Source: Minicystis rosea
Lineage (GTDB): Bacteria > Myxococcota_A > Polyangia > Polyangiales > Polyangiaceae
Direction of reading: 5' to 3'
Assembly: GCA_001931535.1 (NCBI GenBank)
Contig: CP016211.1
Coordinates: 4,503,573-4,567,572, forward strand
Length of the DNA: 64,000 bases
Shown here: piece after piece, positions 7,547 through 36,529 of the stretch
How positions within the stretch are numbered: the first letter of the stretch is position 1
Layout: each line of letters opens with the position of its first letter
Translations under genes and position numbers: made by a program
The notes under the pieces: generated by a model
What the model was told of the DNA's origin: nothing
What the model saw: the letters and a program-made list of their open reading frames with translations, nothing else
The model's database searches: none

Positions 7547-8941
7547 TCACTGCAAGCGGATGACGCAGTCGTACTTGCCGTGCTTCGCGTCGAAGTAGTC
7601 CGACGCGAAGACCTTCACGAAGTACGTGCCCGCCTTGCTGATGGCCTCGCTCGACAGCACGTCGAGGTAGCCTTGATCGTCGCTCGGCCCGACCAGCGAG
7701 TTGCCCTGATCGTCGAAGATCTCGATCACGGTGTCGGTGAGCCGATCGAGCCCGGTCGTCTGCACGTAGATCTGCTTGCCGACGTCGGCCGCGGTCACGG
7801 TGACGGCGATCCAATCCGCGTCGGTGCCGCTCGAGAAGCTCGCGCCTTGGATGGCGTACGGCAGAGCGACCGCGCCGTTGGTCTCGGCGGCGGCCTGGCT
7901 GTCGTTGGGCTCCTTCTCGGCGCCGCCCTGCGCCGGCGTCTCCTTCACCTCGAGCCCGATGGAGTAGCCGTCGAGCCCGCCTTGATCGATCGCGACCGCG
8001 TAGATCACGTCGGTCGACGCGATCACCTGCGTGGTGCTCTCGCCCGCGGCGAACGCGTCCGCGAACTTGCCGCTCTTCGGGAGGAAGTAGGCGCCGGGCG
8101 TGGCGTCGGGGTGCGTCCCCGTCGCGGTGAGGTCGACGATGTTGAGCGTCGCGCTCGACGGCGTGTACGCGAAGAGCGCGCTGTCCCCCGGGCTCGCGAG
8201 CATCTCGGTCGCCGCGGCGCTCGGCGTCACGGCCTTGGGCGCGCGCGCCTTGATGGCGAACGCCCCGGGGTACGGATACGCGAGCGTGTCGCCCTCGGGC
8301 CCGCTCGTGAGGTTCACGTCCACGGAGGCGGCGGGCGCGTCGACGTCGACGAGCAGCGTGTAGTCGACGACGTAGTCGGCCACGTTGTCCACCGACGCCG
8401 CGGCGCCCGCGGGCGAATCGACGCTGACGTTGGTGAACTCGAGCGGCGTGAAGAAGCCGTCGCCGGTCGAGGTCGTGTCGAACGGCGTCTCGAAATCGAG
8501 GCCGCGCGCGTGCACCGTGACCACGCTGCCCTGCGCGAGCGAGCCGCGCGTGGTGATCTTCACCGGCGCCTCCACCGCGAACGCGCCCGTGAAGCTCGTG
8601 GTGACGCTGCCTTCGCGCACGGTCACGTCGCGGCGGCCGAGCGCGGCCTTGGGCGCCACGGTGATGGTCGCGACGAGCGCGCTCGGGCTCGCGACCACGA
8701 GGTCGTCGACCGTGATGTCCGGCCCGAAGTCGACGGTCGCGCCCTTCGTCCAGCTCGTGCCCGTGCCGCTGATGGTCACATCCATCGTGCGAGCGAGGAA
8801 CGCCGAGGTCGGCGTCACCGCGCTGACGCTGGGATCGCCCGCGCCCGGCTCACCCTTCTCGCCCTGCGGGCCCGTGCAGGCCGCGAGCGCAATGCTGGCA
8901 AGCGTCATTCCCCATGTGAAACGCGATCCGATTCGCTTCAT
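7547..8941 (-). CDS. secreted lipoprotein with C-terminal pre-peptidase (PPC)-like domain
   Basis: Internal start MKRIGSRFTWGMTLASIALAAC (lipobox LAAC) inside ORF 7547..10591, with a GGAGG RBS about 9 nt upstream. C-terminus 'DADWIAVTV...TYFVKVFASDYFD...KYDCVIRL' resembles a bacterial PPC domain. The upstream part of the long ORF is antisense to kamD and rejected. Confidence 0.55.
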   Translation of the reverse strand: MKRIGSRFTWGMTLASIALAACTGPQGEKGEPGAGDPSVSAVTPTSAFLARTMDVTISGTGTSWTKGATVDFGPDITVDDLVVASPSALVATITVAPKAALGRRDVTVREGSVTTSFTGAFAVEAPVKITTRGSLAQGSVVTVHARGLDFETPFDTTSTGDGFFTPLEFTNVSVDSPAGAAASVDNVADYVVDYTLLVDVDAPAASVDVNLTSGPEGDTLAYPYPGAFAIKARAPKAVTPSAAATEMLASPGDSALFAYTPSSATLNIVDLTATGTHPDATPGAYFLPKSGKFADAFAAGESTTQVIASTDVIYAVAIDQGGLDGYSIGLEVKETPAQGGAEKEPNDSQAAAETNGAVALPYAIQGASFSSGTDADWIAVTVTAADVGKQIYVQTTGLDRLTDTVIEIFDDQGNSLVGPSDDQGYLDVLSSEAISKAGTYFVKVFASDYFDAKHGKYDCVIRLQ

Positions 8942-9079
8942 CGCCAAGCTCCTCTGTTTTCCGAGAGCCCCCCGGCTCCCCCCTTTGGCGATTAGCGAAC
9001 CGCGCCTTTCGCGGTCAACGAAAAGCCGATCGGTCCAGCCTGGTTGACGGCCCCCGTCCCCACCCGCTAGAGCCGCTCC

Positions 9080-10636
9080 ATGGCCCAGGTCCCCGTCGAT
9101 CCCGCCGCCGTCGAAGCCTGCCGCGCCTCCGCGGCCGACATCGCCGACGAGGTGCAGCGCTTCATCGATCGCCACACCACCGTGGGCGTGGAGCGCACCG
9201 TGGCCCGCTCGTACGGCGTCACCGGCGCCGACGGCGAAGGCACGCCGCTCTGCAACACGCTGGTCGATCGCCTGCACGAGAAGGGCTTCACCGGCCGCGG
9301 CGTCGCCTACTTCCTCGGCCGCGCGCTCCTCGACGGCGCCGCCGACGTGCAGGAGGCCGCCGAGTCGATCGCCTGGGGCGAAGGCTCGCTCGACGGCGAT
9401 CCCGCGTCGTGGCCCTCGGCCGCCGCAGCGCGCGGCGCCCTCGAGCGCGCCACGGAGGCCGCCATCGCCCGCATCGATCGCGCCCGGGACGATCGCATGG
9501 CCTTCAAAGCGCAGTTCCCCGCGGAGCCGACGCCGCTCAAGTACGTCATCGTCGCCACGGGCAACATCTACGACGACGCCGTACAGGCCAAGGCCGCGCG
9601 CTTCGCCGGCGCGGACATCGTCGCCGTCATCCGCGCGACGGCCCAGTCGCTCCTCGACTACGTGCCCGAGGGCGCGACCACCGAAGGCTACGGCGGCACC
9701 TTCGCCACGCAGGAGAACTTCAAGATCATCCGCACCGCCTGCGACGAGGCCACCCGCGAGACGGGCCGCTACTGCGCGCAGACCAACTACTCGTCCGGCC
9801 TGTGCATGAGCGAGATCGCCTGGATGGCGGCGGTCGAGCGGCTCGACATGCTCCTCAACGACGCGATGTACGGGATCCTCTTCCGCGACATCAACATGCG
9901 CCGCACCTTCGTCGATCAGTACTTCTCGCGGCGGATCATCGCGCGGAGCGGGATCGTCATCAACACGGGCGAGGACAACTACCTGACCACGGCCGACGCG
10001 GTCGAGCAGGCCCACACGGTGCTCGCCTCGCAGTTCATCAACGAGGCCTTCGCCAAGCGCGCCGGCCTCCGCGAGGAGCAGATGGGGCTCGGCCACGCGT
10101 TCGAGATCAACCCGTGGCTCGAGGACAGCTTCCTCTTCGAGATCGCGCAGGCCCAGCTCATCCGGCAGATCTTCGATCGCCACCCGATCAAGTGGATGCC
10201 GCCGACCAAGTTCAAGACGGGCGACATCCTCCACAGCCACGTGCACGACGCCATGTTCAACCTGGTCGGCGTCGCCACGAACCAATCGATCGAGCTCCTC
10301 GGCATGTTCAGCGAGGCCATCCACACGCCCCTCTTGATGGATCGGTACCTCTCGCTGAAGAGCGCGCGCTACGTCTTCGGAACGGCGCGCCACCTCGGCG
10401 AAGAGATCCACGCCTGGAAGCCGGGCGGCATCGTCGAGACCCGCGCCCGCGACGTGCTCGAGAAGGCGAAGGGTCTGCTCGAAGAGGTGCAGCGCGAGAC
10501 CATCTGGGACGCGATCGGCCGCGGCGCCTTCGCCGACGTGAAGCGCACGCGCACCGGCGGGAAGGGCGCCGCCGGCGTCGTCGAACGGCACCCCGAGTAC
10601 GTGAACCCGATCCTCGAAGCGCTCGAGCGCGGTTAG
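9080..10636 (+). CDS. kamD: D-lysine 5,6-aminomutase alpha subunit
   Basis: Near full-length collinear similarity to Clostridium KamD. Examples: 'YVIVATGNIYDDAVQAKAARFAGADIVAVIRATAQSLLDYVPEGATTEGYGGTFATQENF', 'LNDAMYGILFRDINMRRTFVDQ', 'INTGEDNYLTTADAVEQAHTVLASQFINEAFA', 'KWMPPTKFKTGDI', 'HDAMFNLVG'. Length 518 aa is as expected. Confidence 0.85.
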   Translation: MAQVPVDPAAVEACRASAADIADEVQRFIDRHTTVGVERTVARSYGVTGADGEGTPLCNTLVDRLHEKGFTGRGVAYFLGRALLDGAADVQEAAESIAWGEGSLDGDPASWPSAAAARGALERATEAAIARIDRARDDRMAFKAQFPAEPTPLKYVIVATGNIYDDAVQAKAARFAGADIVAVIRATAQSLLDYVPEGATTEGYGGTFATQENFKIIRTACDEATRETGRYCAQTNYSSGLCMSEIAWMAAVERLDMLLNDAMYGILFRDINMRRTFVDQYFSRRIIARSGIVINTGEDNYLTTADAVEQAHTVLASQFINEAFAKRAGLREEQMGLGHAFEINPWLEDSFLFEIAQAQLIRQIFDRHPIKWMPPTKFKTGDILHSHVHDAMFNLVGVATNQSIELLGMFSEAIHTPLLMDRYLSLKSARYVFGTARHLGEEIHAWKPGGIVETRARDVLEKAKGLLEEVQRETIWDAIGRGAFADVKRTRTGGKGAAGVVERHPEYVNPILEALERG

Positions 10637-10657
10637 TCACCGTCGAGCGCTTGCGAC

Positions 10658-10755
10658 GTCGCGAGCGCGAGGTCGCAAGCGCGAACGACGATGCGCGATG
10701 TCGCACGCACGAGCGACGATGCGCGGTGTCGCGAGCGCGAACGACGATGCGCGGA
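10658..10755. repeat. three and a half copies of an imperfect 28-bp tandem repeat (gtcgcRagcgcgaacgacgatgcgcgNN) overlapping the start codon of the downstream lipoprotein gene
   Basis: Direct reading of 10658..10755. Units begin at about 10658 (partial), 10672, 10700 and 10728. Each contains ...gacgATGcgcg... Confidence 0.6.
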
Positions 10756-11826
10756 ACAGGAGCGTCCCGCGACGTTTTGTGCGCGCCGCGCTGTCCCTTG
10801 CGTGCGCTGGGACACACCCCTACGACCGCGGCCGTGACACACACCATCTCGCGCAAGGGTCTCTTCTCTGCACCTCTCGCTCGCGCGCTCCTCGCGCTCT
10901 CGTTTCCCTGCGTCGTGCTCGCGGCGTGCGGCGGCGGTGGCACGGGTGGATCGGGCGGCGGCACGACGACCGGCAGCGGCGGCAGCGGCGGCACGCCGAG
11001 CGACGCCTGCACGCAATTCGTCGCCTGCGCCGAGACCGCCGAGCCGCAGAGCACGTCCGGCGCGAAGGCCGCGTTCGGCCCCGGCGGCGCGTGCTTTCAG
11101 ACGCAATCCCGCGAAGCGTGCCTGAAGAACTGCACCGACGGCCTCCTCGGCTTGCACCTCACGCACCCGACGGAGCCCGCCTGCGCCCTCTGTCACACCG
11201 ACGCAGACTGCAGCGGCGCGACGCCGGCCTGTGACACGCAGCGCGGCGAGTGCGTCGCCTGTACCAGCGCCGCGCAGTGCCAAGCACCGACCGCGGCCTG
11301 CGACCCGAGCTCGCATACGTGTGTCGCGTGCGCCGCCGACGCGGACTGCAAGGCGCCGCTCGGCGCGTGCGATCTCGAGACCCACACCTGCGTCGCTTGC
11401 ACCAGCGGCGCGCACTGCGCTTCGGGAGCCTGCGAGGCCGACCATACGTGCTGCGAGGCCACGTCACCCTGCGACGCGCCGGCCTGCGGGAGCCACACCA
11501 ACAACTGCGGCAAGTCCGTGTCGTGCGGCAATTGCGGGAGCGGCGATTACTGCGACGAGTTCGGCTGGTGCAAGCCCATCACCACGACGTACACGTGCAA
11601 CCTCAACGGGCACAACAACATGTGCACGAAGGGCCAGGAGCTCTGCCAGTACTACTTCAACCAAGGCGGCTCCACGGCGTGGTGCGACCCGATCCCCGCG
11701 GCTTGCTTGAACCAGCTCACCTGCGCCTGCCTCCTCGCGCAGCACGCCTACTTCCCGCCGGACACGTGCGAGGCGGGCTCGGGCCCCAACGGCGCCGGCA
11801 CGCTCTACGTCACCACGCAGCCCTGA
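10747..11826 (+). CDS. secreted lipoprotein with Myxococcus-type cysteine-rich repeats
   Basis: ATG at 10747 within ORF 9409..11826. Signal and lipobox 'LLALSFPCVVLAAC' then a Gly-rich linker. Four or more repeats of C-x3-DC-x5-CD-x4-CVAC (e.g. 'CHTDADCSGATPACDTQRGECVAC'), typical of the Myxococcales cysteine-rich repeat family. It is inserted between kamD and kamE. Confidence 0.6.
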   Translation: MRGTGASRDVLCAPRCPLRALGHTPTTAAVTHTISRKGLFSAPLARALLALSFPCVVLAACGGGGTGGSGGGTTTGSGGSGGTPSDACTQFVACAETAEPQSTSGAKAAFGPGGACFQTQSREACLKNCTDGLLGLHLTHPTEPACALCHTDADCSGATPACDTQRGECVACTSAAQCQAPTAACDPSSHTCVACAADADCKAPLGACDLETHTCVACTSGAHCASGACEADHTCCEATSPCDAPACGSHTNNCGKSVSCGNCGSGDYCDEFGWCKPITTTYTCNLNGHNNMCTKGQELCQYYFNQGGSTAWCDPIPAACLNQLTCACLLAQHAYFPPDTCEAGSGPNGAGTLYVTTQP

Positions 11827-12097
11827 CGCCATCTCCGACGAACGCAGCCCCGCACCCTCCACGCGCGGAAGCGCTCACCCGCGATCCGCCCCGAGCATGC
11901 CTGCGCTCGCACGTCGCCGCGTGAACGTGCCCGCCGGCAGCTCGGGCGAAGCAGGGCGAGCGCCTTCGTTCTCGCGAAAGGCGCGCGCGCACCGCGGTCA
12001 CGTCGCGCTGCGTCGGGCTCGTCCGTTTCCTCTTCAGCACGCCCGCATGGCAGCGCGGGGTTGGGAACGAGGGGCCTCCTCTGCTAAGAGGCGACGC

Positions 12098-12832
12098 ATG
12101 GCGGAGAGCAAGCAGCTTCGCGCGTACGGCGATCGCCAGGGCGACGGCATGGTGCAGATGTCCTTCACCCTGGAGGTCTTGCCGGGCGACCGGGCGCGGG
12201 AGGCGGCGAAGCGCTTCGCCGAAGCGCATGGCCTACGCGATCCCTTGGTGACGACCATGGAGCAGTGCGCCAAGGAGCACACGTACTTCGTCGTCTACGG
12301 CCACTCGCAGCACAGCGTCGATCTCTCGGCGATCCACGTGGAAGAGCTCTCGGCGCGCCCGCTCCGGCACGACGAGATCGAAGACAAGGCCAAGCCGCTC
12401 GGCCGCAAGATCGTGGTGGTGGGCGCCTGCACCGGCAGCGACGCGCACACGGTCGGCATCGACGCCATCCTCAACTACAAGGGCTTCGCCGGCGAGAAGG
12501 GGCTCGAGAGCTACAAGTGCTTCGACGCCCACAACCTCGGCGCGCAGGTGGAGAACCACGAGCTCCTCGAGCGCTCCAAGGCCCTCGGCGCCGACGCCAT
12601 CCTCGTCAGCCAAGTCATCACCCAGCGCAACTGCCACAAGGAAAACGCCGCGGCCTTCGTCGATCTCCTCCGCCAGGAGAGCCTGCGCGAGCGCTTCATC
12701 ATCCTCCTCGGCGGCCCGCGCATCGACCATCAGCTCGCCGTCGACCTCGGCTTCGACGCCGGCTTCGGCCCCGGCACCAAGCCCGCGACCGTCGCCTCGT
12801 TCCTCGTCGAACGCCTCCTCGGCCGGAACTGA
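12098..12832 (+). CDS. kamE: D-lysine 5,6-aminomutase beta subunit (B12-binding)
   Basis: ATG at 12098 (M68 of ORF 11897..12832). Collinear match to KamE: 'VQMSFTLEV', 'KIVVVGACTGSDAHTVGIDAILNYKGFAG' (DxHxxG-type B12-binding motif), 'ADAILVSQVITQRN', 'ILLGGPRI...LGFDAGFGPGT'. Confidence 0.85.
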   Translation: MAESKQLRAYGDRQGDGMVQMSFTLEVLPGDRAREAAKRFAEAHGLRDPLVTTMEQCAKEHTYFVVYGHSQHSVDLSAIHVEELSARPLRHDEIEDKAKPLGRKIVVVGACTGSDAHTVGIDAILNYKGFAGEKGLESYKCFDAHNLGAQVENHELLERSKALGADAILVSQVITQRNCHKENAAAFVDLLRQESLRERFIILLGGPRIDHQLAVDLGFDAGFGPGTKPATVASFLVERLLGRN

Positions 12833-12894: not shown

Positions 12895-14201
12895 ATGCGC
12901 CAACATCTCTTCTCCACGACGCTCGCCCTCGCACTCTTCACGGGCTGCGGAGACTCGCTCTCGCCCGAGGGCGCGACCGCTTCATCGACGAGCGGTTCCG
13001 GTGCGGGGTCGACGACCGGGCCCGGTGTGGGCGGCGCGCTCCCAGCCAGCGGCGATTGTTCCACGATCGCCTTCCGGCCCGCCGTCATCACCCTCGACGA
13101 AGACCCTTCGCACGATGACGACGCTCCGCAGCTCGTCGCGACCGGGAGCGCGGGGCTCATCGCGCTGGCTTTCGAGCGCCGGCTCGCAGCCTCGACGATC
13201 CCGTTCACGGAGGTGGGCCACACGGCTTTCAATCCCTTCAACGTCTGGCCCATCGCCCCGCCTGGGACGCTGGCCACGCCCTCCATCCCGGAGACGCTCC
13301 CCCGGGCCTCCTCGGCGTCCCGACGCACAGCTTCGCGCTCACGGGTACGTCCGAGGCCGCGCTTGGCCTGCTCACGGTCGCCTACGCGGAGCAGGCCGCC
13401 TTCCATCTCGGGCTCGATCCCTTCGAGACCACGGGGAACGTCATCGGGGTCCCGGGAACCACACCCATGTTTGCAGCGCACAACGGCGAGGCCTTCTTGG
13501 TCGCTGCGCAGGATGCCGGCGGCAACTACCTCGACGTCTCTCTCGTTTCCCACACCAACGATGGACCGACCGTGCAGAGTTGGCCGTGGCCCTGCTCGTT
13601 TCTGCCGGATGGGGTCGACCCCTACCCGGCCGGAGCCGTGCCCTTCGGCGACGGCTTCCTCGTCGCCGCGATGAACCTCTTCTCCGCGGATCCCGACTGC
13701 TCCGCGGACACGCTGACCGTGATCCACCGCGTGCGTGCCGGCGAGAGCCCGGTGCTCGTCGGCGGCTTCGACGGGTACGCCGTCGTGGCGCCGCACCCGG
13801 AGGGCCTCTGGGCGGCGTGGCCCAAGCACGTGGACGATGCGCCGCCCCAGCTCGAGCTCCGGAGAATCGACGGCGCAACCGGTGAAGTCGTCGTCTCGAC
13901 GACGCTCGCAGACGTGGACCCAGGCAGCTTCGCCATCGCGTCGATGGGTCGCTCGCTCGCGCTCGCCTGGACACCGATCGGCGTGTCGCTGGACACGGCG
14001 CCGCCCGAGGTCCACGTCCGCGTCCTCACGGAGTCCGGGGCCAAGCTCGGAGAGGCGGTGCTCCCCAATCTCGACGCCCCGGGGCGCATCTCCGTGGCCG
14101 CCTCACCCGACGCGCGGAGCATCGTGGTGGCCTGGGGACAGTGGTGGTCGAACGCGAGCCGCATCTCGATGGCGCGCGCCGACTGTATCGGCGGCTCGTG
14201 A
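12895..14201 (+). pseudogene. lipoprotein gene split by a frameshift near 13290-13310 (C5 run), or a sequencing indel
   Basis: MRQHLFSTTLALALFTGCGDS (lipobox) at 12895 in frame 1 stays protein-like to about 13300 ('...FNPFNVWPIAPPGTLATPSIPE') and then degenerates. Frame 3 is protein-like from about 13263 through ORF 13467..14201 ('GDAPPGLLGVPTHSFALTGTSEAALG...'). The switch maps to 'gacgctcccccgggcc'. Confidence 0.4.
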
Positions 14202-14271: not shown

Positions 14272-14765
14272 CTACCTCTCCCCTTCCCTCGCCCAAAACT
14301 TTGAGGCAGCGGAAGGGGTCCACCCTCCCTTCGCCCAAAACTTTGAGGCAGCGGAAGGGGTTCACCCTCCCTTCGCCCAAAACTTTGAGGCAGCGGAAGG
14401 GGTTCACCCTCCCTTCGCCCAAAACTTTGAGGCAGCGGAAGGGGTTCACCCTCCCTTCGCCCCAAACTTTGAGGCAAGCGGAAGGGGTCCACCCTCCCTT
14501 CGCCCAAAACTTTGGGGCTGCGGAAGGGCTCCACCCTTCCCGCACCCAAACCGTTGAGACAGCGGCAAGGGTTGAAGCCTTCACTCGCCCAAACGGTTCG
14601 CACCGCGACAAGGGTCGAAGCCTTCGCTCGCCCAAACGGTTGGGACCGCGGCAACGCTCGAAGCCTTCGCTCGCCCAAACGGTTGGGACCGCGGCAACGC
14701 TCGAAGCCTTCGCTCGCCCAAACGGTTGAGACCGCGGCAACGCTCGAAGCCTTCACTCGCCCAGA
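14272..14765. repeat. tandem array of about 11 copies of a 42-43 bp repeat in two diverged subfamilies; not CRISPR
   Basis: Units 'cctcccttcgcccaaaactttgaggcagcggaaggggttcac' (about 14272-14573, 7 copies) grade into 'ccttcgctcgcccaaacggttgggaccgcggcaacgctcgaag' (about 14574-14765, 4-5 copies). Each unit holds an imperfect inverted repeat (ccttcgc...gcggaagg). There are no unique spacers. The array lies between two lipoprotein genes. Confidence 0.8.
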
Positions 14766-15057
14766 TGGTTCGAGGCCACGGCGGGGCTGGCGCTCGCGCG
14801 CGCTTCGCCACTTCGTTGGAGCTCAAACGATCGCGGTGATATCGTTTGAGCACCAACGATCGCGATGCCGCCGCGATCGAAGCTGACATCCGCGGTGACC
14901 AGGCCGAGCGACCATCGCGCCGTCGACGGTGGGGCTCGGTGCTTTCATTTGCCTGCTTCCTTCGCTCTTGACGGCGCGAGCGCGGGACTTGCAGAGCGGG
15001 CGCAGAGCAGCAGCTCTCGTCATGGATTCACGGATGATGATGATGATTCGAGGCTCG

Positions 15058-16092: not shown

Positions 16093-17372
16093 TCACGCCG
16101 CGATCGGGGGCGTTTCCGAATTGTTACCGCGACTCTTGAGCCTTGCCAGCACCCGCTTTCGCAGGAGCCGGATCCGCCCCGTGATGCGGCTGACCCGCTG
16201 CATCCGCCGCACCCGCTTCTGCACGCCCGCCAGCTCGGTCGGTTCGCCCCGATAGACGCGCTCCAGCACGCCGACCGCATCACTGCACTCCGTCGAGCCG
16301 ATCGCTGCGTAGCCCTGCGTGGTCGCGAGGTCCTCGTGGCCAACCAACTCGCGCACAACGTGCACGGGCACGTGGCCACGGAGGAGGATGGTCACGAAGA
16401 ACGCTCGCAGGCCGTGGAGCCGTGCATGCGGCAGCTTCAGCCTGCGGAGCGTCTTCTTAACGACCCAGTACGGGCCGCCGCAGCCCCACGGCTTGCCCGT
16501 CGATGTCAGCGACGCCTCTTGCGCCTTCGGGCGCTCCTGAACGCGCGCCTCGATGAGGGCCGCGCGAAGCTGGGACGAGAGCGGCACCTGCCGCTCGTTC
16601 CCCGACTTCGTCGTCCTCGTGTGGTCGCGATAACGCGAGAGGCGCACGATGAGCCGGTTGTGCTCCAACTCGACGTCCCCGCACCGCAGGGCCCGGATCT
16701 CCCCTTGCGCAGCCCAGCATGCGCCGCGAGCAGGATGACGAGCCGATGCTCGGGGCGGGTAGCGCAGTCGATCATCGCCGCCACGTCCTGGGAACTCGGC
16801 GCGGTCGGCACGCGCTTACCGCACTTGGGCAGCTTGAGGTACTTCGGCTCTTGGGTGAGGATCTTCGCCTCGACCGCGAACCGCGCCACGCTTCGCAGCG
16901 CGAGGAAGACCTGGCGCCGCGTCGAGACCGCACATCCGGCCTCGACCATCGCCACGTCGATCTCGCGCGACTTCGCTACCTCGAACGCCTCCGAGACGGG
17001 GAGGTCGCGGAGGCGCGGGGTGACGTGCGTTCGGAGCTTGCTGCGGTAGCCATCGAGCGTCGACGGCGAGATCGCCGACGGCGCATACTCGGTGAGATAC
17101 CGATCGACGACCACCCCGAACATGGGCTCCGGAGGCGGCTCGGGCGCGGGCGCCTCGGTGGGCCGCAGCGCCACGCCGTTCGGGCCGCACATTCGCTCCG
17201 GGGCGCCGAAGAGGGTCGCCCCGAGCTTACGAGCCGTCTCCTCGGTCTGCGCCGCCGCCATCGTCTGGACGGCGGCGTCCCGACGGTAACGGCCCTCCGT
17301 TCCGTCCGGTTTCGTAAAGGTGAAGTCAATGACCAGGACCCGCTTACCCCGTCGAGTCGTCTTGCGCACCAT
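16093..17372 (-). pseudogene. int: tyrosine recombinase (phage integrase family), frameshifted
   Basis: ORF 16506..17372 (N-terminal SAM-like and core 'ILLAAHAGLRKGE') and ORF 16093..16668 ('HGLRAFFVTILLRGHVPVHVVRELVGHEDLATTQGYA') are the two halves in different frames. The junction reads LRKG|EIRALRCGDVELEHNRL across a GGGG run near 16660-16680, so a single missing G restores the frame. Confidence 0.7.
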
Positions 17373-17477
17373 GATGAGAACTCCTTCTCATGGCGCACGT
17401 GTTCGCTGACGACCGCATAGCAGAAGGAGCACGCGCGCCGCAAGGGCCGGTAAAAATGCCCAAATGAGACCAGATCG

Positions 17478-24925: not shown

Positions 24926-27118
24926 CTACCCGTCGGTCTTGTCGGTGCCGGTGACCTTGGTCTTCACGCCGCTCTCGAATGGGCCCTGCACGTCGATCGA
25001 CGTCGGCGTCATCTTGACCGTCATGCCCGCGGCCTCGATGGTGAGGCTGCTCTTGGCCTTGACGATCACCTTGCTCCCCCGGAGCGACGCCGAGCCATCG
25101 ATCGAGAGCGATGCCGCTCCCTTGAAGCCATCCTGTACGAAGCCGGCGGCCGAGACCTTGTAGGAACCGAACGACTCATCGAGCGCGATCGCCTTCAGCC
25201 CGTACTGCGGCGCTCGCACGTTGATCGGTCCACCGCTCGCTCGCACGTGCGCACCGGTGACGCCGACCACGGAGGCCACGGTGCCGATCTCGTGCCAACA
25301 CCCGCCCACGACCACGGCGGCGCCGCCGCTCACGTGACGACTGTGCCCCGCGATGGCCGTCTCGATCTTCGCCGCGCCCACGACACGCGCCAGCGTGCTC
25401 GAGACCTCTGTGGCGTAGTCGCCGCCGACCTCGAATAGCCGCGCCCCGCCGACCGAGACCGACTCGGAGCCGAGGCCGAAGGCCATCGCGCCGCCCACGT
25501 TGACGGCGCGGCTCGCGCCAACCGACGTGCTCTGCGCGCCGTCGACCTTCACCGCGCACACCGCGCCGACGATCTGCGTGCGGTTCGCACCGATCTCGTG
25601 CTTGTCGGTGCCCTTGACGTCTACGGTCTTGTCGCTCTCGGTCCGCTCGTTGTAGTCCGACGACGCGTTGAGGAGCATGTCTTCGTGCCCCGCGGCATCG
25701 TCCATACGCAGGGTGTTGGCGCTGCCGCCTCCGGGCGTCGTGCGCGATCCGAACGCGCTTCGGACCTTCTGTGCGGGTAGCGCCTCCGCGGGCCGTGCCG
25801 CGCCGTTGTCGAGCCGGCCGAGCACGTAGGGCTTGTCGGCGGACGCGCCCGAGAACCCGAGCAGAGCCTCCCACCCGACGCGCGGCAAGAACACCGAGCC
25901 GGACGTTTGCGGCTGGAGCGGCCGGATCCAAGTCGAGCTGGTTTCGTCCTTCTTGCGGCGCCGATCCCAGCGCAGGAGCGCGGTCACCTGGCCGTGCGCG
26001 TTGGTGTGGATCTCCGTGCCGGCCGGCCCTGTCACGGTCGCGGTCTGGACTCCGGCGATCGTTGGCGGCTCGGCACGACGCGGGCGGTACGGCGTCTCGG
26101 CCGGGATAGCGATGAATTCGGCATCGAACCGGCGGCCGTCGCGACCAGTTGAGTCGTTGCCCCGCAACTGCCATCGCACGTCGAGCAGGAGCCAGCGCGC
26201 GTTGACATCCTTCCGCGCTGCCCCCGTGAGCTCGAACGTGCGGCCCGGCGCGAATCGTCGGCAATTCGTCTTTCCCGTCAGCAGGACGCGCTCGGCGCGC
26301 GCCTCTTCGAGACGCAGATTGGCGACCACTTCGCCCGCGGCAGGATCGCGGTAGCCACCGGGCATCTCATTGCACGTCAGCGCTCCGACCCCTGCTCTCG
26401 CCTCTGCCCGAAGATCGGCGCGGGGATGCTCGAAATCGTAGTCGCAGAGGCGCACGGCGTCGCGCACGACCGCGCGCCGGAGGCGCACGGCGAATACGCA
26501 GTCCTGCTCGACGAACCCGGCGTCCGCCGCGAAGGGAAGCAGCGCGTCCCCAGCTATCGGCGCGAAGGCGGCAGGGCTGTCCGCGAAGACCACGACATCC
26601 GACCCGCTCTCGTGGTCGACGAACCACGCGATCCCTTCGGCGGCGAGGAGCCGGGAGAAGAAGGCAAGATCGCTCTCGAACGCCTGCACGCACTGCGCAT
26701 GTTTCGGTAGCCGGCGCGACACGCGCACGTCGACGTCCAGGCCGTGCTCCGTCAGCACGGCCCGCGCGATCTCGGCTGCGTCCTGCTGAAGAAAGACCTG
26801 ATGGTCGATCGCGTCCGCGAGCGGAGCGACGCGAGGAGCGATCGTCAGTCGCAGCTCTCCGTAGCGCTGTTCCGCGTCCTCAACGACGCCATGCACGGTC
26901 CGCTCGCCGCCGTCGCCCAACGCCACGGCGAACGTCGCCCGTTGGCCCACCAAACCGTCGAGGTCCACGGCGGCCTTCTCCCCGGAGCCATCGACTGCGC
27001 ACGCCGTGACCACGATCGTGAACGGCTGGCCGAAACCCTCCACGCCGCGCGCGCTCTCCACGAGCAGGCGCTCCGCCGCACCTTCCACGACAAGGCGTCC
27101 GAGTCGTTCGCGTGCCAT
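24926..27118 (-). CDS. vgrG: type VI secretion spike protein VgrG (paralog 2, 730 aa)
   Basis: 'PPTIAGVQTATVTGPAGTEIHTNAHGQV', 'LPRVGWEALLGF...KPYVLGRLDN' and beta-helix repeats. The start ATG directly abuts the vgrG3 stop (TAGATG). Confidence 0.85.
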   Translation of the reverse strand: MARERLGRLVVEGAAERLLVESARGVEGFGQPFTIVVTACAVDGSGEKAAVDLDGLVGQRATFAVALGDGGERTVHGVVEDAEQRYGELRLTIAPRVAPLADAIDHQVFLQQDAAEIARAVLTEHGLDVDVRVSRRLPKHAQCVQAFESDLAFFSRLLAAEGIAWFVDHESGSDVVVFADSPAAFAPIAGDALLPFAADAGFVEQDCVFAVRLRRAVVRDAVRLCDYDFEHPRADLRAEARAGVGALTCNEMPGGYRDPAAGEVVANLRLEEARAERVLLTGKTNCRRFAPGRTFELTGAARKDVNARWLLLDVRWQLRGNDSTGRDGRRFDAEFIAIPAETPYRPRRAEPPTIAGVQTATVTGPAGTEIHTNAHGQVTALLRWDRRRKKDETSSTWIRPLQPQTSGSVFLPRVGWEALLGFSGASADKPYVLGRLDNGAARPAEALPAQKVRSAFGSRTTPGGGSANTLRMDDAAGHEDMLLNASSDYNERTESDKTVDVKGTDKHEIGANRTQIVGAVCAVKVDGAQSTSVGASRAVNVGGAMAFGLGSESVSVGGARLFEVGGDYATEVSSTLARVVGAAKIETAIAGHSRHVSGGAAVVVGGCWHEIGTVASVVGVTGAHVRASGGPINVRAPQYGLKAIALDESFGSYKVSAAGFVQDGFKGAASLSIDGSASLRGSKVIVKAKSSLTIEAAGMTVKMTPTSIDVQGPFESGVKTKVTGTDKTDG

Positions 27119-29326
27119 CTACGCCCCCACCTTCGACGTCGCCTTACGGGCCGTCGTGGCGGCGTCGATCTTCGTCGTCCCGCCGTCCACCATCAGTTTG
27201 CCGCCGATCTTCGCCGTCGAGCCGCCGGTCGCCTTGAGACTGCCCGCGACCTTGATTGTGATTGTCGGCGCCTCGATCTGGATCTTGCCGCCCGCGCTCA
27301 TGCTCACGGTGCCCCCAACCTTGATCCGGCCAACAGCCGCCAACGTCTCGACGTCGCCCGCGGCGGTCTCCGACACCGGACCCGCCGAGACGGCCTTCGC
27401 GCCGGTCACGCTCTCATCACAGCCGCGCCCAGCGACGACGTTGCGCGCGCCGCCGACCAGCTCGATCCGCATGTCGGCCACGCTCTCGTGCGTGCCAAGC
27501 CCCGCGAGCGCCGCCAAGTTGCCGCCGACGAGCTCGGCGTACGCGCCCTGAACAGTGGTCATGGCCTCGTTGCACTGGAGGCCGTAGAGCGCGCCGATCG
27601 CCTCCGTGTAGCTCCCGACCTTCACGTGCCGATTCGCTTTGACGCCGATGTCCTCCACCGCGCCCACCGTCTCGGTGCGCGCGCCTTTGACGAGCGTCTG
27701 TACATCTGCCCCCACGTCGACATTCTGCGAGGCGCCCACGGTGATCGCCTGCGACTTCACGTGCACGCCATAGCCGCCGCTGATGTCGTGCGTCTCGTTC
27801 GCGCCGACCTTCGTGCTCGCGTTCGCACCGACGCTCACGCCTTGGGTGTTCGACGCGTGAACAAACATCTCCTGCCCGCTGGCTGCATCGCCGAAACGGA
27901 TCTCGTTCGACGTTCCGTCGTGCGGCGACGTGTTCGATCGCAGCGCCGAGGTCGCCTTCATCGCCGGCAGCGCATAGGGCGGCGCCGTTATCGCGTTGTA
28001 GACCTGGCCGAGCACCAATGGCTCGTCCGGGTTCCCATCGACGTACGCCACGCCTACCTCCCACCCCACGCGCGGCAGGAGCATCGAGCCGCCCATGTTC
28101 ATTTGCAGCGTGCGCGTCCATCGCGACGACGTGTCGTCGAGGGTGCCCGAGGGATCCCAAGGCAGCGCGAGCTTGACCGAACCGAGATCGTCGACGTGGA
28201 TCTCCTCTCCGCGCGGGCCAGTCACGAACGCGGTCTCGACCCCCTCGATCCTCGGCCGGATTGCCGGGGGCGATGGCCGGAACGTGCGTTCGTTCCCGTC
28301 GAGCGAGCGCGGCACGAGCAGGACGCGGTTGCGATAGGGCCAAGCCGTCGTGGTGCTGTCCGCTGCCTGCTCGAGCGCGTGCTCAACCTCCACGATTAGC
28401 CAGTGGCCGTTGAACGCAGCGTCAGCGGCGCCGTGGATCCCCACCACACGGCCGGGTTGAAGCCGCGTGCACCCGCTCTCTCCGCGCGCTGAGACCTGGA
28501 GCCGTTGAAGCTGTGCCAGGCGCACGCGCGCGCGGGCCTCCGCGGCGTCGGCGTGCAGCACACAGGCCGGGAACTCGAACCATTCGCACGCGCCGTCGCC
28601 GGCCCGACCTTCGATCAGCACGTCCGGCTGGTGCACGTCGTAGTCGCGCACGTGGACCGCGTCGTGCGCCAGCTCGTCGGCGCGCGCGAGCGAGAAGAAG
28701 GACGACACCGTGCCTGACATCCCGCTCGCGTCGGCGAAGGGCACGCGCACGTCGCCGAGGATGCCGTCGTAAGAGCCTGGGGCGTCACCGAAGACGATGC
28801 GCGGCTCGCCCTCGTGCGCGTCGAACCAGTACGAAATGCCCTCTTCGGCGAGTAGCCGCTCGATGAACGTCCATTCGCTCTCGTCGTACTGCACGCACTG
28901 CATGCGGCGGGCGTAGCGGCCCGCGAGCCGCCAAGTTACGTGCATCGCGGGCACGCACGCATCGCGGAGCACCTCGTCCACGATCTCCTGCGTCGTCTTC
29001 TTCTGGAAGATGCGATAGCCGCTCCGGAGGCTAAGCGGCCACACCTCGACGGACAGCTCGAGAACGTAGCGGTGCTCGTCGCGGTACGGCCCATCGTAGG
29101 CCGCGTGCGTGACCACGAGAGGGATGTCCCGCTCCGGTCCGTCGCCGTCGTCGGCGAGCCGCAGCGCGGCTTGCGCGAGGCCAAGCCCGTCGAGGTCCAC
29201 GTCGGCGTCCTCCGTGAGCACGTCTACGGTCCAGTTCGGAAGCGCGTTCATCGCTTCGAGCCCGCGGACGTGGACCACGCGGCAGGCGCCGAGCCCTTCG
29301 CACGACAGCGACACGTACTTGCTCAT
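27119..29326 (-). CDS. vgrG: type VI secretion spike protein VgrG (paralog 3, about 735 aa)
   Basis: ATG at 29326 (M20 of ORF 27119..29383) with a GGAGAG RBS. 'RPRIEGVETAFVTGPRGEEIHVDDLGSVK', 'LPRVGWEVGVAYVDGNPDEPLVLGQVYN' and C-terminal beta-helix repeats. Overlaps the upstream gene stop (ATGA). Confidence 0.85.
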   Translation of the reverse strand: MSKYVSLSCEGLGACRVVHVRGLEAMNALPNWTVDVLTEDADVDLDGLGLAQAALRLADDGDGPERDIPLVVTHAAYDGPYRDEHRYVLELSVEVWPLSLRSGYRIFQKKTTQEIVDEVLRDACVPAMHVTWRLAGRYARRMQCVQYDESEWTFIERLLAEEGISYWFDAHEGEPRIVFGDAPGSYDGILGDVRVPFADASGMSGTVSSFFSLARADELAHDAVHVRDYDVHQPDVLIEGRAGDGACEWFEFPACVLHADAAEARARVRLAQLQRLQVSARGESGCTRLQPGRVVGIHGAADAAFNGHWLIVEVEHALEQAADSTTTAWPYRNRVLLVPRSLDGNERTFRPSPPAIRPRIEGVETAFVTGPRGEEIHVDDLGSVKLALPWDPSGTLDDTSSRWTRTLQMNMGGSMLLPRVGWEVGVAYVDGNPDEPLVLGQVYNAITAPPYALPAMKATSALRSNTSPHDGTSNEIRFGDAASGQEMFVHASNTQGVSVGANASTKVGANETHDISGGYGVHVKSQAITVGASQNVDVGADVQTLVKGARTETVGAVEDIGVKANRHVKVGSYTEAIGALYGLQCNEAMTTVQGAYAELVGGNLAALAGLGTHESVADMRIELVGGARNVVAGRGCDESVTGAKAVSAGPVSETAAGDVETLAAVGRIKVGGTVSMSAGGKIQIEAPTITIKVAGSLKATGGSTAKIGGKLMVDGGTTKIDAATTARKATSKVGA

Positions 29327-30486
29327 GAGCTCTCTCCCGAGCGTGCGAGGCGCGCGCGTGCCTCCTCGAACGCCTGCATCCATCGGCGCTGGAGCTCCGG
29401 AGCGCGATTCAGCGCGCGCCCCCAGCGCTCGTCCTCGCTCTGCTTCGCTTCGGGCGTCAGGCCGTGCCGGGCGAGCAGATCATTGACCTCGGCGCCCGTC
29501 GTGAGCTCCGCGACGAGCCGCGCGTGAAGCTCGATCGTCAGCATCGGCTCAGCGGTCGCGGGTGCACGCTCGAACGCCTCCGCGAGCGGGATGATCTTCC
29601 CGCTCGGCATCTCCAGCACCGTCGTTGCATCGGGATCGACGACAACCGGCACCGGAGCGGCATGATCGGCTTCGTGTCGTGCCACCCACGCGGGCGGCAC
29701 AGGCTCGTTTGACACGAGAGCAGCGTCGACCGGAGCCGCCGGCGCCCCGCTCACGAAGAACGCGGACGCCGTGAACGGCAGCGCGGCGTCGGCTTCCTGC
29801 ACGCCTCCCAGACGCGTCTCGTCGAGCCCGGGCGCCGTGGCATGCGCACGCTTGCGTCTCGGGAGCGGGACCGCAAGCGGCGGCGGGAGCGGCCCCGGCT
29901 CGCCCTCGCCGAACGGGAGCGCCCGTGTGCGCGGGCTCACGACCGTGGCGGTCTTCCCATCGCGCCCGCGCGGCGTCGGCCCCGTTTGGATGAGCCGCGG
30001 TCGCTCGGGCGCCGGCACGGGCGGTTCGCGGCGCTCGCCCTGAAGGAGCTCGAGCGCATCCGCGCGCAGCTTCGCATCCTCGGCGAGGCGGTCGGACCAG
30101 AGGCGGTGCAAGTGCGCCAGATCCGCGACGCCGAGCTTCATCTCTTCGAGGAACGCGACCGGATCCGGATGGGCCAGCCACGCTTGCAGGAAGTCGAACC
30201 ACGAGCGCAGATCCTCATCGAGCGGCGGGATTCGTCGTGTCCAGTGCGTGCGCGCCTCGGCCGTCGCCGCTTCGAGCGCATCGAAGAACGACGGATCGTC
30301 CTCGATCGCGTCGAGCACATGCTCATCCCACGCTTCCTCCGCGGCCTCCCACGTACGCGCATCGAGCCGCAAGAAACCAAGGAGCTCGCCCAGCCCGAGC
30401 CCATCCGTGAGCCCGGCCCGCACGAACGCGAACTGCGCGAGCGTCACGCCGTCGAGAGCCATCTCCGTCACGTCAGCCATCGGCAT
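29323..30486 (-). CDS. hypothetical protein between DUF2169 and vgrG3 (possible adaptor)
   Basis: ATG at 30486 (MPMADVTEMALDG...) within ORF 29323..30537. The stop overlaps the vgrG3 start. No recognisable domain. Acidic, helical N-terminus and a Pro-rich middle. Confidence 0.45.
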   Translation of the reverse strand: MPMADVTEMALDGVTLAQFAFVRAGLTDGLGLGELLGFLRLDARTWEAAEEAWDEHVLDAIEDDPSFFDALEAATAEARTHWTRRIPPLDEDLRSWFDFLQAWLAHPDPVAFLEEMKLGVADLAHLHRLWSDRLAEDAKLRADALELLQGERREPPVPAPERPRLIQTGPTPRGRDGKTATVVSPRTRALPFGEGEPGPLPPPLAVPLPRRKRAHATAPGLDETRLGGVQEADAALPFTASAFFVSGAPAAPVDAALVSNEPVPPAWVARHEADHAAPVPVVVDPDATTVLEMPSGKIIPLAEAFERAPATAEPMLTIELHARLVAELTTGAEVNDLLARHGLTPEAKQSEDERWGRALNRAPELQRRWMQAFEEARARLARSGESS

Positions 30487-31465
30487 CCACCCGGATCTCG
30501 CGCAGCGCGGTCTTGCCGCGTCCCATCGGGAACGCATGGCGCACGGTGAGCTCGATGCGATCGTCGAGTGGCTCGATCAGCACCGTGTCGACGGTGGGCC
30601 GCACCCCCACCGACCGCCCGTCGTTGTAGCGCCCGTGCAGCGAGACGGGCAGCGACGGAAGCTCCGCCTTCCAGAGACCGTCGAGTGTCATCCCGACGAG
30701 CGCGATTGGATCACCCGCGCCGAGCGGCGGATCAAACTGCAACGCGACCGGGGCCACGTTGTTGTGCCGCACGTCGAAGTCGGCGGGCATGCGCGGCATC
30801 CGCGTCCTCCGCCATATGTCATCGAAGGTGCCGGCGAGCTCCGCGCGCGGCGACCAGTGCGCGCTGATGGCGCCGAAGCCGACTGGCTCGGGTCGGTCGG
30901 CGGCGCTCGTGATTGGGAATGCGGGGTCCTCGATTTGCGGCGCGGGCATGTCGACCAACTCGGCCGCGCTCCGACCGAAGCCGCGCCCCACGGGGTTGCG
31001 CCGCTCCACGACGCTCTTGTCCAAGCTCGTACCGCCGTACGCGCGCTCCCACACGATCGGCTTGCGCTCGAAGGACGCGGCCGGGCCCACTGTCACGCCG
31101 AGCGCGCCGCGGTAGTAGACGCGCTCGCCGTGGACCCGCAGGTGGATTTTGCGGTCGCGCACGAGGGCGCCGACGTCCACCGCGAGCACGGGACGCTGCG
31201 ACACCGCCGCACCGACAATCACGACGTCCGTGCCACGCTTCTCTACGCAGATGTCGCCGGGGTAGCGGATGCAACTGTCCTCGGCGTTGGGGAAGTATGA
31301 GATGTCGCCGGCGCGCACCGGAACCTGCTCATCCGCGAGCGCGAGGCGCCCGCGCGCGTCCCGGCGGAAGGTCGCCTTCACGACGGCAAGCACGACGTCG
31401 CGGCCGTCGGGAGCGGCAAGGGGCGCGGCGAGCGCGGCGAAGGATGTCGCGTTGGCGAGGGCCAT
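30473..31465 (-). CDS. DUF2169-family T6SS-associated protein
   Basis: ATG at 31465 (M64 of ORF 30473..31654). N-terminus 'LANATSFAALAAPLAAPDGRDVVLAVVKATFRRD' fits the DUF2169 N-terminal pattern (N.T.f......vvvKaTf). About 330 aa in the typical position beside vgrG. Confidence 0.55.
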   Translation of the reverse strand: MALANATSFAALAAPLAAPDGRDVVLAVVKATFRRDARGRLALADEQVPVRAGDISYFPNAEDSCIRYPGDICVEKRGTDVVIVGAAVSQRPVLAVDVGALVRDRKIHLRVHGERVYYRGALGVTVGPAASFERKPIVWERAYGGTSLDKSVVERRNPVGRGFGRSAAELVDMPAPQIEDPAFPITSAADRPEPVGFGAISAHWSPRAELAGTFDDIWRRTRMPRMPADFDVRHNNVAPVALQFDPPLGAGDPIALVGMTLDGLWKAELPSLPVSLHGRYNDGRSVGVRPTVDTVLIEPLDDRIELTVRHAFPMGRGKTALREIRVDADG

Positions 31466-31469
31466 GGGG

Positions 31470-32117
31470 CTAGGTCGAGTCCTGGTGCCCGCGCAACCGA
31501 CCGCAAGTGGAGCATCGGAAGACGTAGGTTGATACGGTGTCCGCTTCGACCCACTCGGCAAGATCGGCCGCTTCATCGGCGCGGAAGTCGAGAACCTCTC
31601 CCACCAGAGTGACAACCTCGACCCTGCGCTCGGCCGCCGCTCGCGCCCAATCATCGATATCCCAGCTACCTACGAAGATCGCGGGACGATGGCAGCAGAA
31701 CTGCCATTGCTCACCCTGCCACGTGCTGTAGTTTGGAGTTCGCAGGAGTTCTTCGAGGTGCTCTGGCGCGATCCGGACGCTGTACCACTCCTCGTCGTCC
31801 TCGGTGCGGGGCACCACCTCGTATCCCAGCGACGGCCACGGCGGGGAGTCCGTGCCGTGCGTGATACCCTTCGCAGCATGCTCCGCATCCACGATACCAA
31901 ACTCGGTATCTTTCATCCACGATGCGCGCCCCCCACGCAGACACGTGTAGCAGGCCACAAGCCTGTCCTTGTGTACGATCTCGAAGATGGGAACGCCACG
32001 GACGCCGCACATGGCGCAGTTGCCCGTCAACTTGAAGCCTTCCGCATCGGCGACACGCGCCTCAAACAGCGGGAATGGCATCCCGAGTTCCGCAAACGTT
32101 GACGTGTCAGAGCCCAT
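31470..32117 (-). CDS. cbrC: CbrC-family (UPF0167) protein
   Basis: 215 aa with an AAGGAG RBS. N-terminus 'FPLFEARVADAEGFKLTGNCAMCGVRG' and C-terminus 'YVFRCSTCGRL' parallel the CbrC/UPF0167 pattern (LPxFxYHPDPxxTG...CxxC ... FxCxxCG). Confidence 0.55.
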   Translation of the reverse strand: MGSDTSTFAELGMPFPLFEARVADAEGFKLTGNCAMCGVRGVPIFEIVHKDRLVACYTCLRGGRASWMKDTEFGIVDAEHAAKGITHGTDSPPWPSLGYEVVPRTEDDEEWYSVRIAPEHLEELLRTPNYSTWQGEQWQFCCHRPAIFVGSWDIDDWARAAAERRVEVVTLVGEVLDFRADEAADLAEWVEADTVSTYVFRCSTCGRLRGHQDST

Positions 32118-32132
32118 GGCAGTCTCCTTTGG

Positions 32133-32357
32133 TCAGAGCGGGATCGGTTTGTAGTTGAGGAGTTCGTCCACGATCTCCTCATCGCTGGCGTTCGTAAATC
32201 GACTGTCCCAGAAGATGACGTTGATGGGCATGGGGTGGACGACGGCTTCGTCCAGGCGATCGACTAGCGCGTCAATCTCCTCCTCCGTCCCCTCTGCGTT
32301 GCGGATCTTGTGCACCATGATCACGAGTTCGTCTCGCGAAAGCTGGCGTTGGGACAT
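32133..32357 (-). CDS. colicin/pyocin DNase-type immunity protein (Im family)
   Basis: 74 aa. 'LSRDELVIMVHKIRNAEGTEEEIDALVDRLDEAVVHPMPINVIFWD...SDEEIVDELLNYKP' parallels Im9 ('EFLQLVTTICNA...[27 protein letters not shown]'). AAGGAG RBS. Sits 16 nt downstream of the Rhs stop. Confidence 0.7.
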   Translation of the reverse strand: MSQRQLSRDELVIMVHKIRNAEGTEEEIDALVDRLDEAVVHPMPINVIFWDSRFTNASDEEIVDELLNYKPIPL

Positions 32358-32372
32358 CGTGCGCTCCTTGCT

Positions 32373-36431: not shown

Positions 36432-36529
36432 GATTCGAATCCTCGCGCGCGGGGCAAATCTCCGCCGTAGACGCGCTTCGCGCGTCGTAAATACCGCTCT
36501 TTCCGCTGCGGCTTGCTATCGCATGAACG

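Follow-up and report, generated by a model that had tools for sequence, protein, structure and literature searches.

We analysed a stretch of 64,000 nucleotides from the genome of Minicystis rosea (contig CP016211.1, positions 4,503,573 to 4,567,572 of the forward strand), in which the genes for the two subunits of lysine 5,6-aminomutase, kamD and kamE, are separated by a gene for a cysteine-rich lipoprotein. The whole stretch is called the 64-kb window below, and positions are given in its coordinates. Its overall G+C content is 68%. The two kam genes lie on the same strand, and the distance from the kamD stop to the kamE start is 1461 nt, in agreement with the 1.46 kb reported in an earlier note on this DNA. 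The locus contains the following features:

9080-10636, plus strand: kamD, 518 aa, with PF09043, NF052384 and PDB matches; G+C content at third codon positions (GC3) 0.95
10647-10682, plus strand: hairpin with 17-nt arms (94% complementary) and a 2-nt loop, found by an inverted-repeat search 11 nt past the kamD stop
10665-10753, plus strand: intergenic 28-bp tandem repeat, 3.2 copies with 85% matches, Tandem Repeats Finder score 136
10834-11826, plus strand: interposed lipoprotein gene, 330 aa with 40 Cys, signal peptide and lipobox
11827-12097, plus strand: spacer of 271 nt ahead of kamE, with a Shine-Dalgarno-like AAGAGG 7 nt 5' of the ATG
12098-12832, plus strand: kamE, 244 aa, with NF052385, PF16554, PF02310 and PDB matches; GC3 0.94

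The identity of the kam genes was examined with family models and solved structures. KamD scored 786 bits against the Pfam family Lys-AminoMut_A (PF09043) and 738.2 bits, in a full-length match, against the NCBIfam model for the alpha subunit of lysine 5,6-aminomutase (NF052384, equivalog cut-off 600). KamE scored 333.7 bits against the beta-subunit equivalog NF052385 (cut-off 280), and its OAM_dimer (PF16554) and B12-binding (PF02310) matches correspond to the dimerisation domain and the B12-binding Rossmann domain. The closest solved structures were 8t0v_A, 9q1a_C and 1xrs_A for KamD (E = 2e-175 to 2e-164, residues 6-518) and 9q1a_A/1xrs_B for KamE (E about 1e-71, full-length alignment). The DxHxxG B12 motif is present in KamE as DAHTVG, the segment GSDAHTVGIDAILNYKG aligns with GTDAHTVGLDAIMNMKG of 9q1a_A, and the Lys of its NYKG segment is aligned to that of NMKG in the same structure; we take this residue to be the lysine that anchors pyridoxal 5'-phosphate (PLP), Lys144 of the beta subunit in 1XRS. 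Both reading frames are intact, the GC3 values give no sign of decay, and the identity to the Sorangium orthologues is 82% for KamD and 81% for KamE. Judged from their sequences, kamD and kamE of M. rosea are true, intact lysine 5,6-aminomutase subunit genes, as had been claimed in the earlier note, with KamD at the 518 aa claimed and KamE measured at 244 aa. It had been considered there that they might prove to be ornithine aminomutase homologues; this identity was rejected, since the OraE model gave only 115.5 and 111.6 bits for the two proteins against a cut-off of 800 and the subunits are two separate chains. The OraE structure matched KamD only at 5e-23.

The 197-nt spacer between kamD and the lipoprotein gene holds the hairpin and then the tandem repeat. 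The hairpin was the strongest stem in the minimum-free-energy fold of 10630-10840 (z = -2.24), and it may serve as a terminator lacking a U-tract or as a stabiliser of the mRNA end. The 28-bp repeat occurs nowhere else in the window (3 matches, where shuffles led one to expect 0). The spacer ahead of kamE has the 271 nt that had been described and showed no structure of significance (z = -0.35). Rfam at E <= 1 detected neither a riboswitch nor another known RNA in the two spacers, the only matches being chance ones in repeats at 14.3 kb, and the spacers did not align above background (about 63-65% column identity) with the kamD-kamE spacer of Sorangium. We also noticed, at 9045-9079, a TTGACG hexamer in the 78 nt between the divergent genes, 29-34 nt 5' of the ATG of kamD; from its position one might speculate that the kamD leader is very short or absent.

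The product of the interposed gene begins with a signal peptide ending in the lipobox VLAAC, followed by a Gly/Ser linker, a helical N-domain, about 3.5 copies of a 23-aa Cys repeat with the pattern C-x2-D-x2-C-x5-6-C-x6-7-C-V-x-C, and lastly a Cys-rich beta C-domain. The signal peptide and lipobox were called by inspection of the sequence, without a dedicated predictor; MTHTISRKGLFSAPLARALLALSFPCVVLAAC fits the pattern [LVI][ASTVI][GAS]C, and the lipobox Cys is invariant in 10 homologues. When the protein was aligned with 9 homologues of 321-372 aa, at least 36 Cys were found to be invariant, that of the lipobox included. The start codon had previously been placed inside the 28-bp repeat, which is probably wrong. 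A public M. rosea protein (P0001) corresponds to the 330-aa product with 100% identity and coverage and starts at GTG 10834, and the 9 homologues begin 20-35 residues before the invariant lipobox Cys, which fits the same start. The in-frame ATG at 10747, inside the array, was ruled out by the length of the public protein and by the homologue alignment, and its use as a start codon is unlikely. With the start at GTG 10834, 81 nt downstream of the array, the repeat lies upstream of the gene and is thus intergenic.

In Pfam and NCBIfam searches carried up to E = 10, the interposed protein had no Pfam match and one irrelevant NCBIfam match (E = 0.35). The earlier description of a lipoprotein with Cys-rich repeats was correct. 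The assignment of these repeats to a 'Myxococcales-type' family found no support, as no curated repeat family was matched, that of the Myxococcus cysteine-rich repeats included; PF27011 or the JGI label 'Cys-rich repeat protein' is seen in some distant homologues. The AlphaFold model (mean predicted local distance difference test score 78, core 85-95) shows helical parts and Cys-rich beta-hairpins, and a Foldseek search of the model against the PDB returned nothing at E < 1. The name under which the gene is publicly annotated, 'internalin, putative', is unfounded, as the protein has no leucine-rich repeat or other Pfam match and the predicted fold has no relative in the PDB. The family appears to be confined to Myxococcota-type sequences. 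No paralogue was found within the window; the composition of the gene is native-like (GC3 0.90) and continuous across its junctions. We inspected the neighbourhoods of three full-length homologues: P0004 adjoins a DUF2378 gene, P0007 lies between a VWA gene and a DUF4082 gene, and P0008 has an ABC ATPase gene on one side and a MopE-like gene on the other. All three differ from one another and none contains kam genes. By this evidence the lipoprotein is unrelated to kam.

To place the arrangement among relatives of KamD, 80 loci were retrieved, KamE and the lipoprotein were located in each, and the kamD-kamE gap was taken as the distance between aligned ends. Both kam genes were found in 75 of the 80 loci, and in 68 of these 75 the gap was at most about 126 nt, so the genes are normally adjacent, as had been stated earlier. 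The 17 closest loci come from Polyangiaceae, Polyangiales and other Myxococcales and have 65-82% KamD identity; in 12 of them the gap was 97 nt or less. A homologue of the lipoprotein was found in none of the 80 loci, and the synteny comparison proposed in the earlier note thus gave no sign that the interposed gene belongs to an ancestral arrangement. Since the gap is tight elsewhere and the lipoprotein gene is missing from all these loci, adjacency is the ancestral state, and the insertion in M. rosea is derived and specific to the Minicystis lineage.

The junction is also interrupted in some other genomes. In two Sorangium genomes the kamD-kamE spacers measure 357-393 nt, one of which (L001) was read as non-coding without an open reading frame (ORF) scan. 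The gap contains a gene for a 408-aa M48-peptidase membrane protein in a Polyangiaceae metagenome-assembled genome (MAG; L004), an oppositely oriented gene for a DUF882/M15 peptidase in a Myxococcales MAG (L008), and a 188-aa ORF in a Bacteroidales MAG (L078), whereas in L015 kamD is followed by a convergent gene for a secreted protein and no kamE was found within 10 kb. The three interrupted junctions resemble that of M. rosea in having one unrelated gene between an otherwise intact kamD and kamE, and differ from it in that the inserts are not homologous and none is a Cys-rich lipoprotein, which indicates independent events. An interposed gene or a missing kamE was seen in 7 of 24 Myxococcota-type loci versus 2 of 57 others (Fisher p = 0.002, a rough value because the loci are not phylogenetically independent). 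It follows that the kamD-kamE junction is loosely constrained, or permissive, in Polyangiales. The opposite-strand insert in L008 further implies a separate promoter for kamE, at least in that lineage. Separately, three loci from Myxococcales and Pseudomonadota MAGs (L020, L036 and L041) encode a longer KamD-like protein of about 534 aa with 59-60% identity, and no kamE was detected in the flanks on hand; these proteins may constitute a subclade of their own, whose B12 subunit is unlinked or different.

We then considered the pathway to which the enzyme may belong. The gene set of lysine fermentation has been defined in PMC3149608. When the proteins of two verified clusters, those of Anaerosalibacter and Alkalithermobacter, were used as tblastn queries (E <= 1e-3), no kamA, kamB, kamC, kdd, kce or kal was found in the 64-kb window, which confirms the earlier statement for kamA, kdd and kce and extends it to kal, kamB and kamC. 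Kdd, KamA, KamB and KamC were each present in 38-40 of 55 non-myxobacterial loci, and kamDE lies inside the classical cluster in Firmicutes, Bacteroidales, Thermotogae and Asgard loci; the verified order is kdd-kamA-kamB-kamC-kamD-kamE in Anaerosalibacter and kal-kce-atoDA-kdd-kamA-kamB-kamC-kamD-kamE-crt-hbd in Alkalithermobacter.

Outside the window, the M. rosea genome encodes a bifunctional Kal-Kce of 443 aa (P0216; 872 bits against NF052389, cut-off 725). Such fusions of about 445 aa occur in Polyangiaceae, with Sorangium (P0236) and Polyangium (P0229) as further examples, and the fusion loci L088 (10001-11341) and L090 (10001-11338) lie in unrelated neighbourhoods, away from kamDE. In other Myxococcales these genes are found beside kamDE. 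In L089 (7194-10849), from a Myxococcales genome of 9.5 Mb, kamD overlaps kamE by 4 nt, with kal and kce next in line, and in L013 (10001-13561) and L072 kal and kce stand directly downstream of kamE, without adjacent kamA, kamB or kamC. In L076 kdd is upstream and kal downstream of kamDE. Two other candidates were rejected: Kal-Kce of L013 is not one fused ORF of 443 aa, since the two parts are in different frames and form two genes, and an ORF of L079 taken as a possible Kce proved to be SleB. The steps catalysed by Kce and Kal come only after 3,5-diaminohexanoate, so a dispersed lysine-catabolic route is the simplest reading, and the enzyme most likely serves ordinary lysine breakdown in M. 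rosea. The only literature record of lysine 5,6-aminomutase or 3-keto-5-aminohexanoate in myxobacteria that we found was a table entry for Myxococcus xanthus MXAN4388.

The explanation that we favour, with a probability of roughly 0.7, is that KamD and KamE are intact, that an unrelated lipoprotein gene was inserted between their genes in the Minicystis lineage, and that they form a lysine-catabolic enzyme whose pathway genes are dispersed. An originally tight kamD-kamE unit would have received the lipoprotein gene in the same orientation. The lipoprotein would be exported and have no role in a cytoplasmic B12/PLP enzyme. With its own ribosome-binding site, kamE would now be expressed either from its own promoter, presumably in the 271-nt spacer, or by read-through from upstream, which is possible because the three genes lie on one strand. 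The most likely reaction of the aminomutase would be the conversion of L-beta-lysine to 3,5-diaminohexanoate (or of D-lysine to 2,5-diaminohexanoate), a single step in a lysine catabolism whose genes are probably scattered over the 16-Mb genome, with Kal-Kce at another locus.

Some results weigh against parts of this explanation. With respect to a complete pathway, the Polyangiales-type loci examined showed no kdd, kamA, kamB or kamC at up to 10 kb from kamD. On the question of co-transcription or separate promoters, a scan for sigma-70 promoter and intrinsic terminator consensus sequences returned nothing above shuffle expectation. As to the insertion mechanism, the flanks of the insert contain no direct repeats, inverted repeats or transposase, apart from weak short repeats, and there is no recombinase inside it. 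The insert thus carries no marks of a mobile element: neither a flanking target-site duplication nor terminal inverted repeats were found, and the nearest integrase remnant is at 16.1-17.4 kb.

The surroundings of the kam locus in the window include the following features:

7547-9001, minus strand: divergent gene for a secreted lipoprotein of 484 aa, with an MKRIGSRF...LAAC signal and only a weak Pfam match
12937-14201, with a frame switch at about 13.2-13.4 kb into the 13119-14201 frame: lipoprotein-like ORF (MRQHLFSTTLALALFTGC...) without a Pfam match
14281-14770: two adjoining tandem-repeat arrays with 42-nt and 43-nt units, 6.9 and 5.3 copies, about 90% identical
16093-17387, minus strand: tyrosine integrase in two overlapping frames, its catalytic part (Phage_integrase) at 16093-16815 and its SAM-like N-terminal part at 16506-17387
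24926-36515, minus strand: type VI secretion system (T6SS) effector island with two VgrG (Phage_GPD/Gp5), DUF2169 and a 1380-aa Rhs protein

The divergent lipoprotein gene upstream of kamD is unrelated to kam and is not kept beside kamD in relatives; genes for a VWA/TPR protein and a TMEM260-like glycosyltransferase and a 420-aa ORF without known identity also lie upstream. Downstream, the lipoprotein-like ORF may be a frameshifted pseudogene or reflect a sequencing error. The repeat arrays, with Rfam matches at chance level, lie between it and a GH75-like ORF, and the integrase looks degraded. The Rhs protein of the T6SS island combines a PAAR-like N-terminus with a colicin/pyocin DNase C-terminus. 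No tRNA genes were found in the window. Ferritin, bactofilin, ABC-2, DAGK-like and GCV_T-like genes, which are kept as neighbours in other Polyangiales, are absent from it. The region next to the kam locus is plastic, in keeping with a rearrangement specific to this lineage. Further away, two identical, directly repeated stretches of at least 300 nt were observed at 48999-49298 and 51730-52029, spaced by 2731 nt, together with duplicated ORFs of identical composition statistics (49007-49309/51738-52040 and 50040-50411/52771-53142); the repeats suggest a tandem duplication of about 2.7 kb.

A broader proposal, which we regard as unlikely, is that the Polyangiales proteins form an aerobic 'orphan' KamDE clade without a linked KamB/KamC reactivase, KamA or Kdd, in which the alpha and beta genes are transcribed independently. 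Unrelated genes would then have settled repeatedly between them, once on the opposite strand. If this were true, the clade could differ from the clostridial enzyme in its substrate or physiological role, or in being intrinsically resistant to suicide inactivation.

It was suggested in the earlier note that the aminomutase supplies beta-lysine or a diamino acid for a natural product; in this case 3,5- or 2,5-diaminohexanoate would be a building block of a secondary metabolite. The isolation of kamDE, with no kamA, kdd or kamBC inside 10 kb either in the window or in Polyangiales-type loci, would suit this idea, as would the description of M. rosea as a secondary-metabolite producer in PMC8436480. 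However, no genes for non-ribosomal peptide synthetases, polyketide synthases or tailoring enzymes were found among the window ORFs scanned, where the neighbours are envelope proteins, an integrase remnant and the T6SS island, and the neighbours kept in relatives (ferritin, bactofilin, ABC-2, DAGK) are of a housekeeping type. Moreover, Kal-Kce, which makes sense only for the catabolism of 3-keto-5-aminohexanoate, is encoded in M. rosea, and the corresponding genes follow kamD-kamE in other Myxococcales. The suggestion found no support here; supply of a natural product is improbable, and a dispersed lysine-catabolic pathway is more likely.

Another possibility is that the split marks the onset of decay, with kamDE being lost and the pair no longer stoichiometric or functional. 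Translational coupling has indeed been lost, some relatives have kamD without a nearby kamE, and the bordering region is plastic, with its repeat arrays, possibly frameshifted lipoprotein ORF, frameshifted integrase and T6SS island. Against this stand two full-length ORFs in which the conserved blocks, DxHxxG and the aligned PLP-lysine are kept, the very high GC3, the identity of about 81-82% to the Sorangium orthologues and the Shine-Dalgarno site retained by kamE. We consider that decay has little to recommend it as an explanation.

Slightly less credible still is that the lipoprotein gene is a functional and selected part of the unit, for example a co-regulated partner that links the availability of lysine or B12 to a function at the cell surface. 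The gene has the same orientation, native codon usage and its conserved Cys intact, and a structured repeat region precedes it, which would speak for this reading. Its homologues in other Myxococcota, however, are not beside kam genes, no other kamDE locus has it, and other lineages hold different unrelated genes at the same junction; besides, there is no obvious physical link between a secreted lipoprotein and a cytoplasmic radical enzyme. Finally, a misjoined assembly, for which nothing specific speaks beyond a GC-rich region with short repeats, is barely conceivable, as the publicly recorded sequence is one contig of 16.04 Mb that includes the identical 330-aa gene, and the junctions are unique sequence with the 28-bp repeat found only here and continuous composition.

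The arrangement favoured here, an intact aminomutase pair parted by an unrelated gene, is a gene-order variant of a well-known enzyme system; its value lies mainly in annotation and genome organisation, and no new mechanism is implied. It illustrates that, in large genomes of myxobacteria, a heteromeric radical enzyme dependent on B12 and PLP can have its subunit genes apart from each other. In Polyangiaceae the enzymes of classical lysine degradation through 3,5-diaminohexanoate appear to be retained with their genes scattered, which calls for caution when pathways are predicted from clustering.

Among known systems, one of the closest to the M. rosea proteins is KamD/KamE of Clostridium (Acetoanaerobium) sticklandii and relatives (1XRS, 8T0V, 9Q1A). 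Both have two subunits of about 518 and 244 aa, and the TIM-barrel blocks, DxHxxG and the aligned Rossmann-domain Lys are all present in M. rosea; the differences are the identity of only about 53-55% to the Firmicutes proteins and the genes that are not adjacent. Nor is kamDE of M. rosea embedded in a cluster of the clostridial type, kal-kce-atoDA-kdd-kamA-kamB-kamC-kamD-kamE, as in Alkalithermobacter and Anaerosalibacter. Unlike the hosts of the clostridial enzymes, M. rosea is an aerobic soil myxobacterium. D-ornithine 4,5-aminomutase (OraS/OraE, 3KOW) belongs to the same PLP/B12 aminomutase superfamily and shares the TIM barrel, dimerisation and B12 Rossmann domains, but a single OraE chain of about 730-760 aa unites the barrel with the B12 domain, whereas M. 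rosea has two chains. The kamD-kamE-kal-kce clusters of Myxococcales (L089, L013 and L072) share their KamDE clade with M. rosea, the identity being 58-69% for L013 and L072, and likewise lack adjacent kamA, kamB and kamC. In L089 kamD and kamE overlap by those 4 nt with kal and kce directly after them, whereas in M. rosea the two genes are 1.46 kb apart and the fused kal-kce lies elsewhere in the genome.

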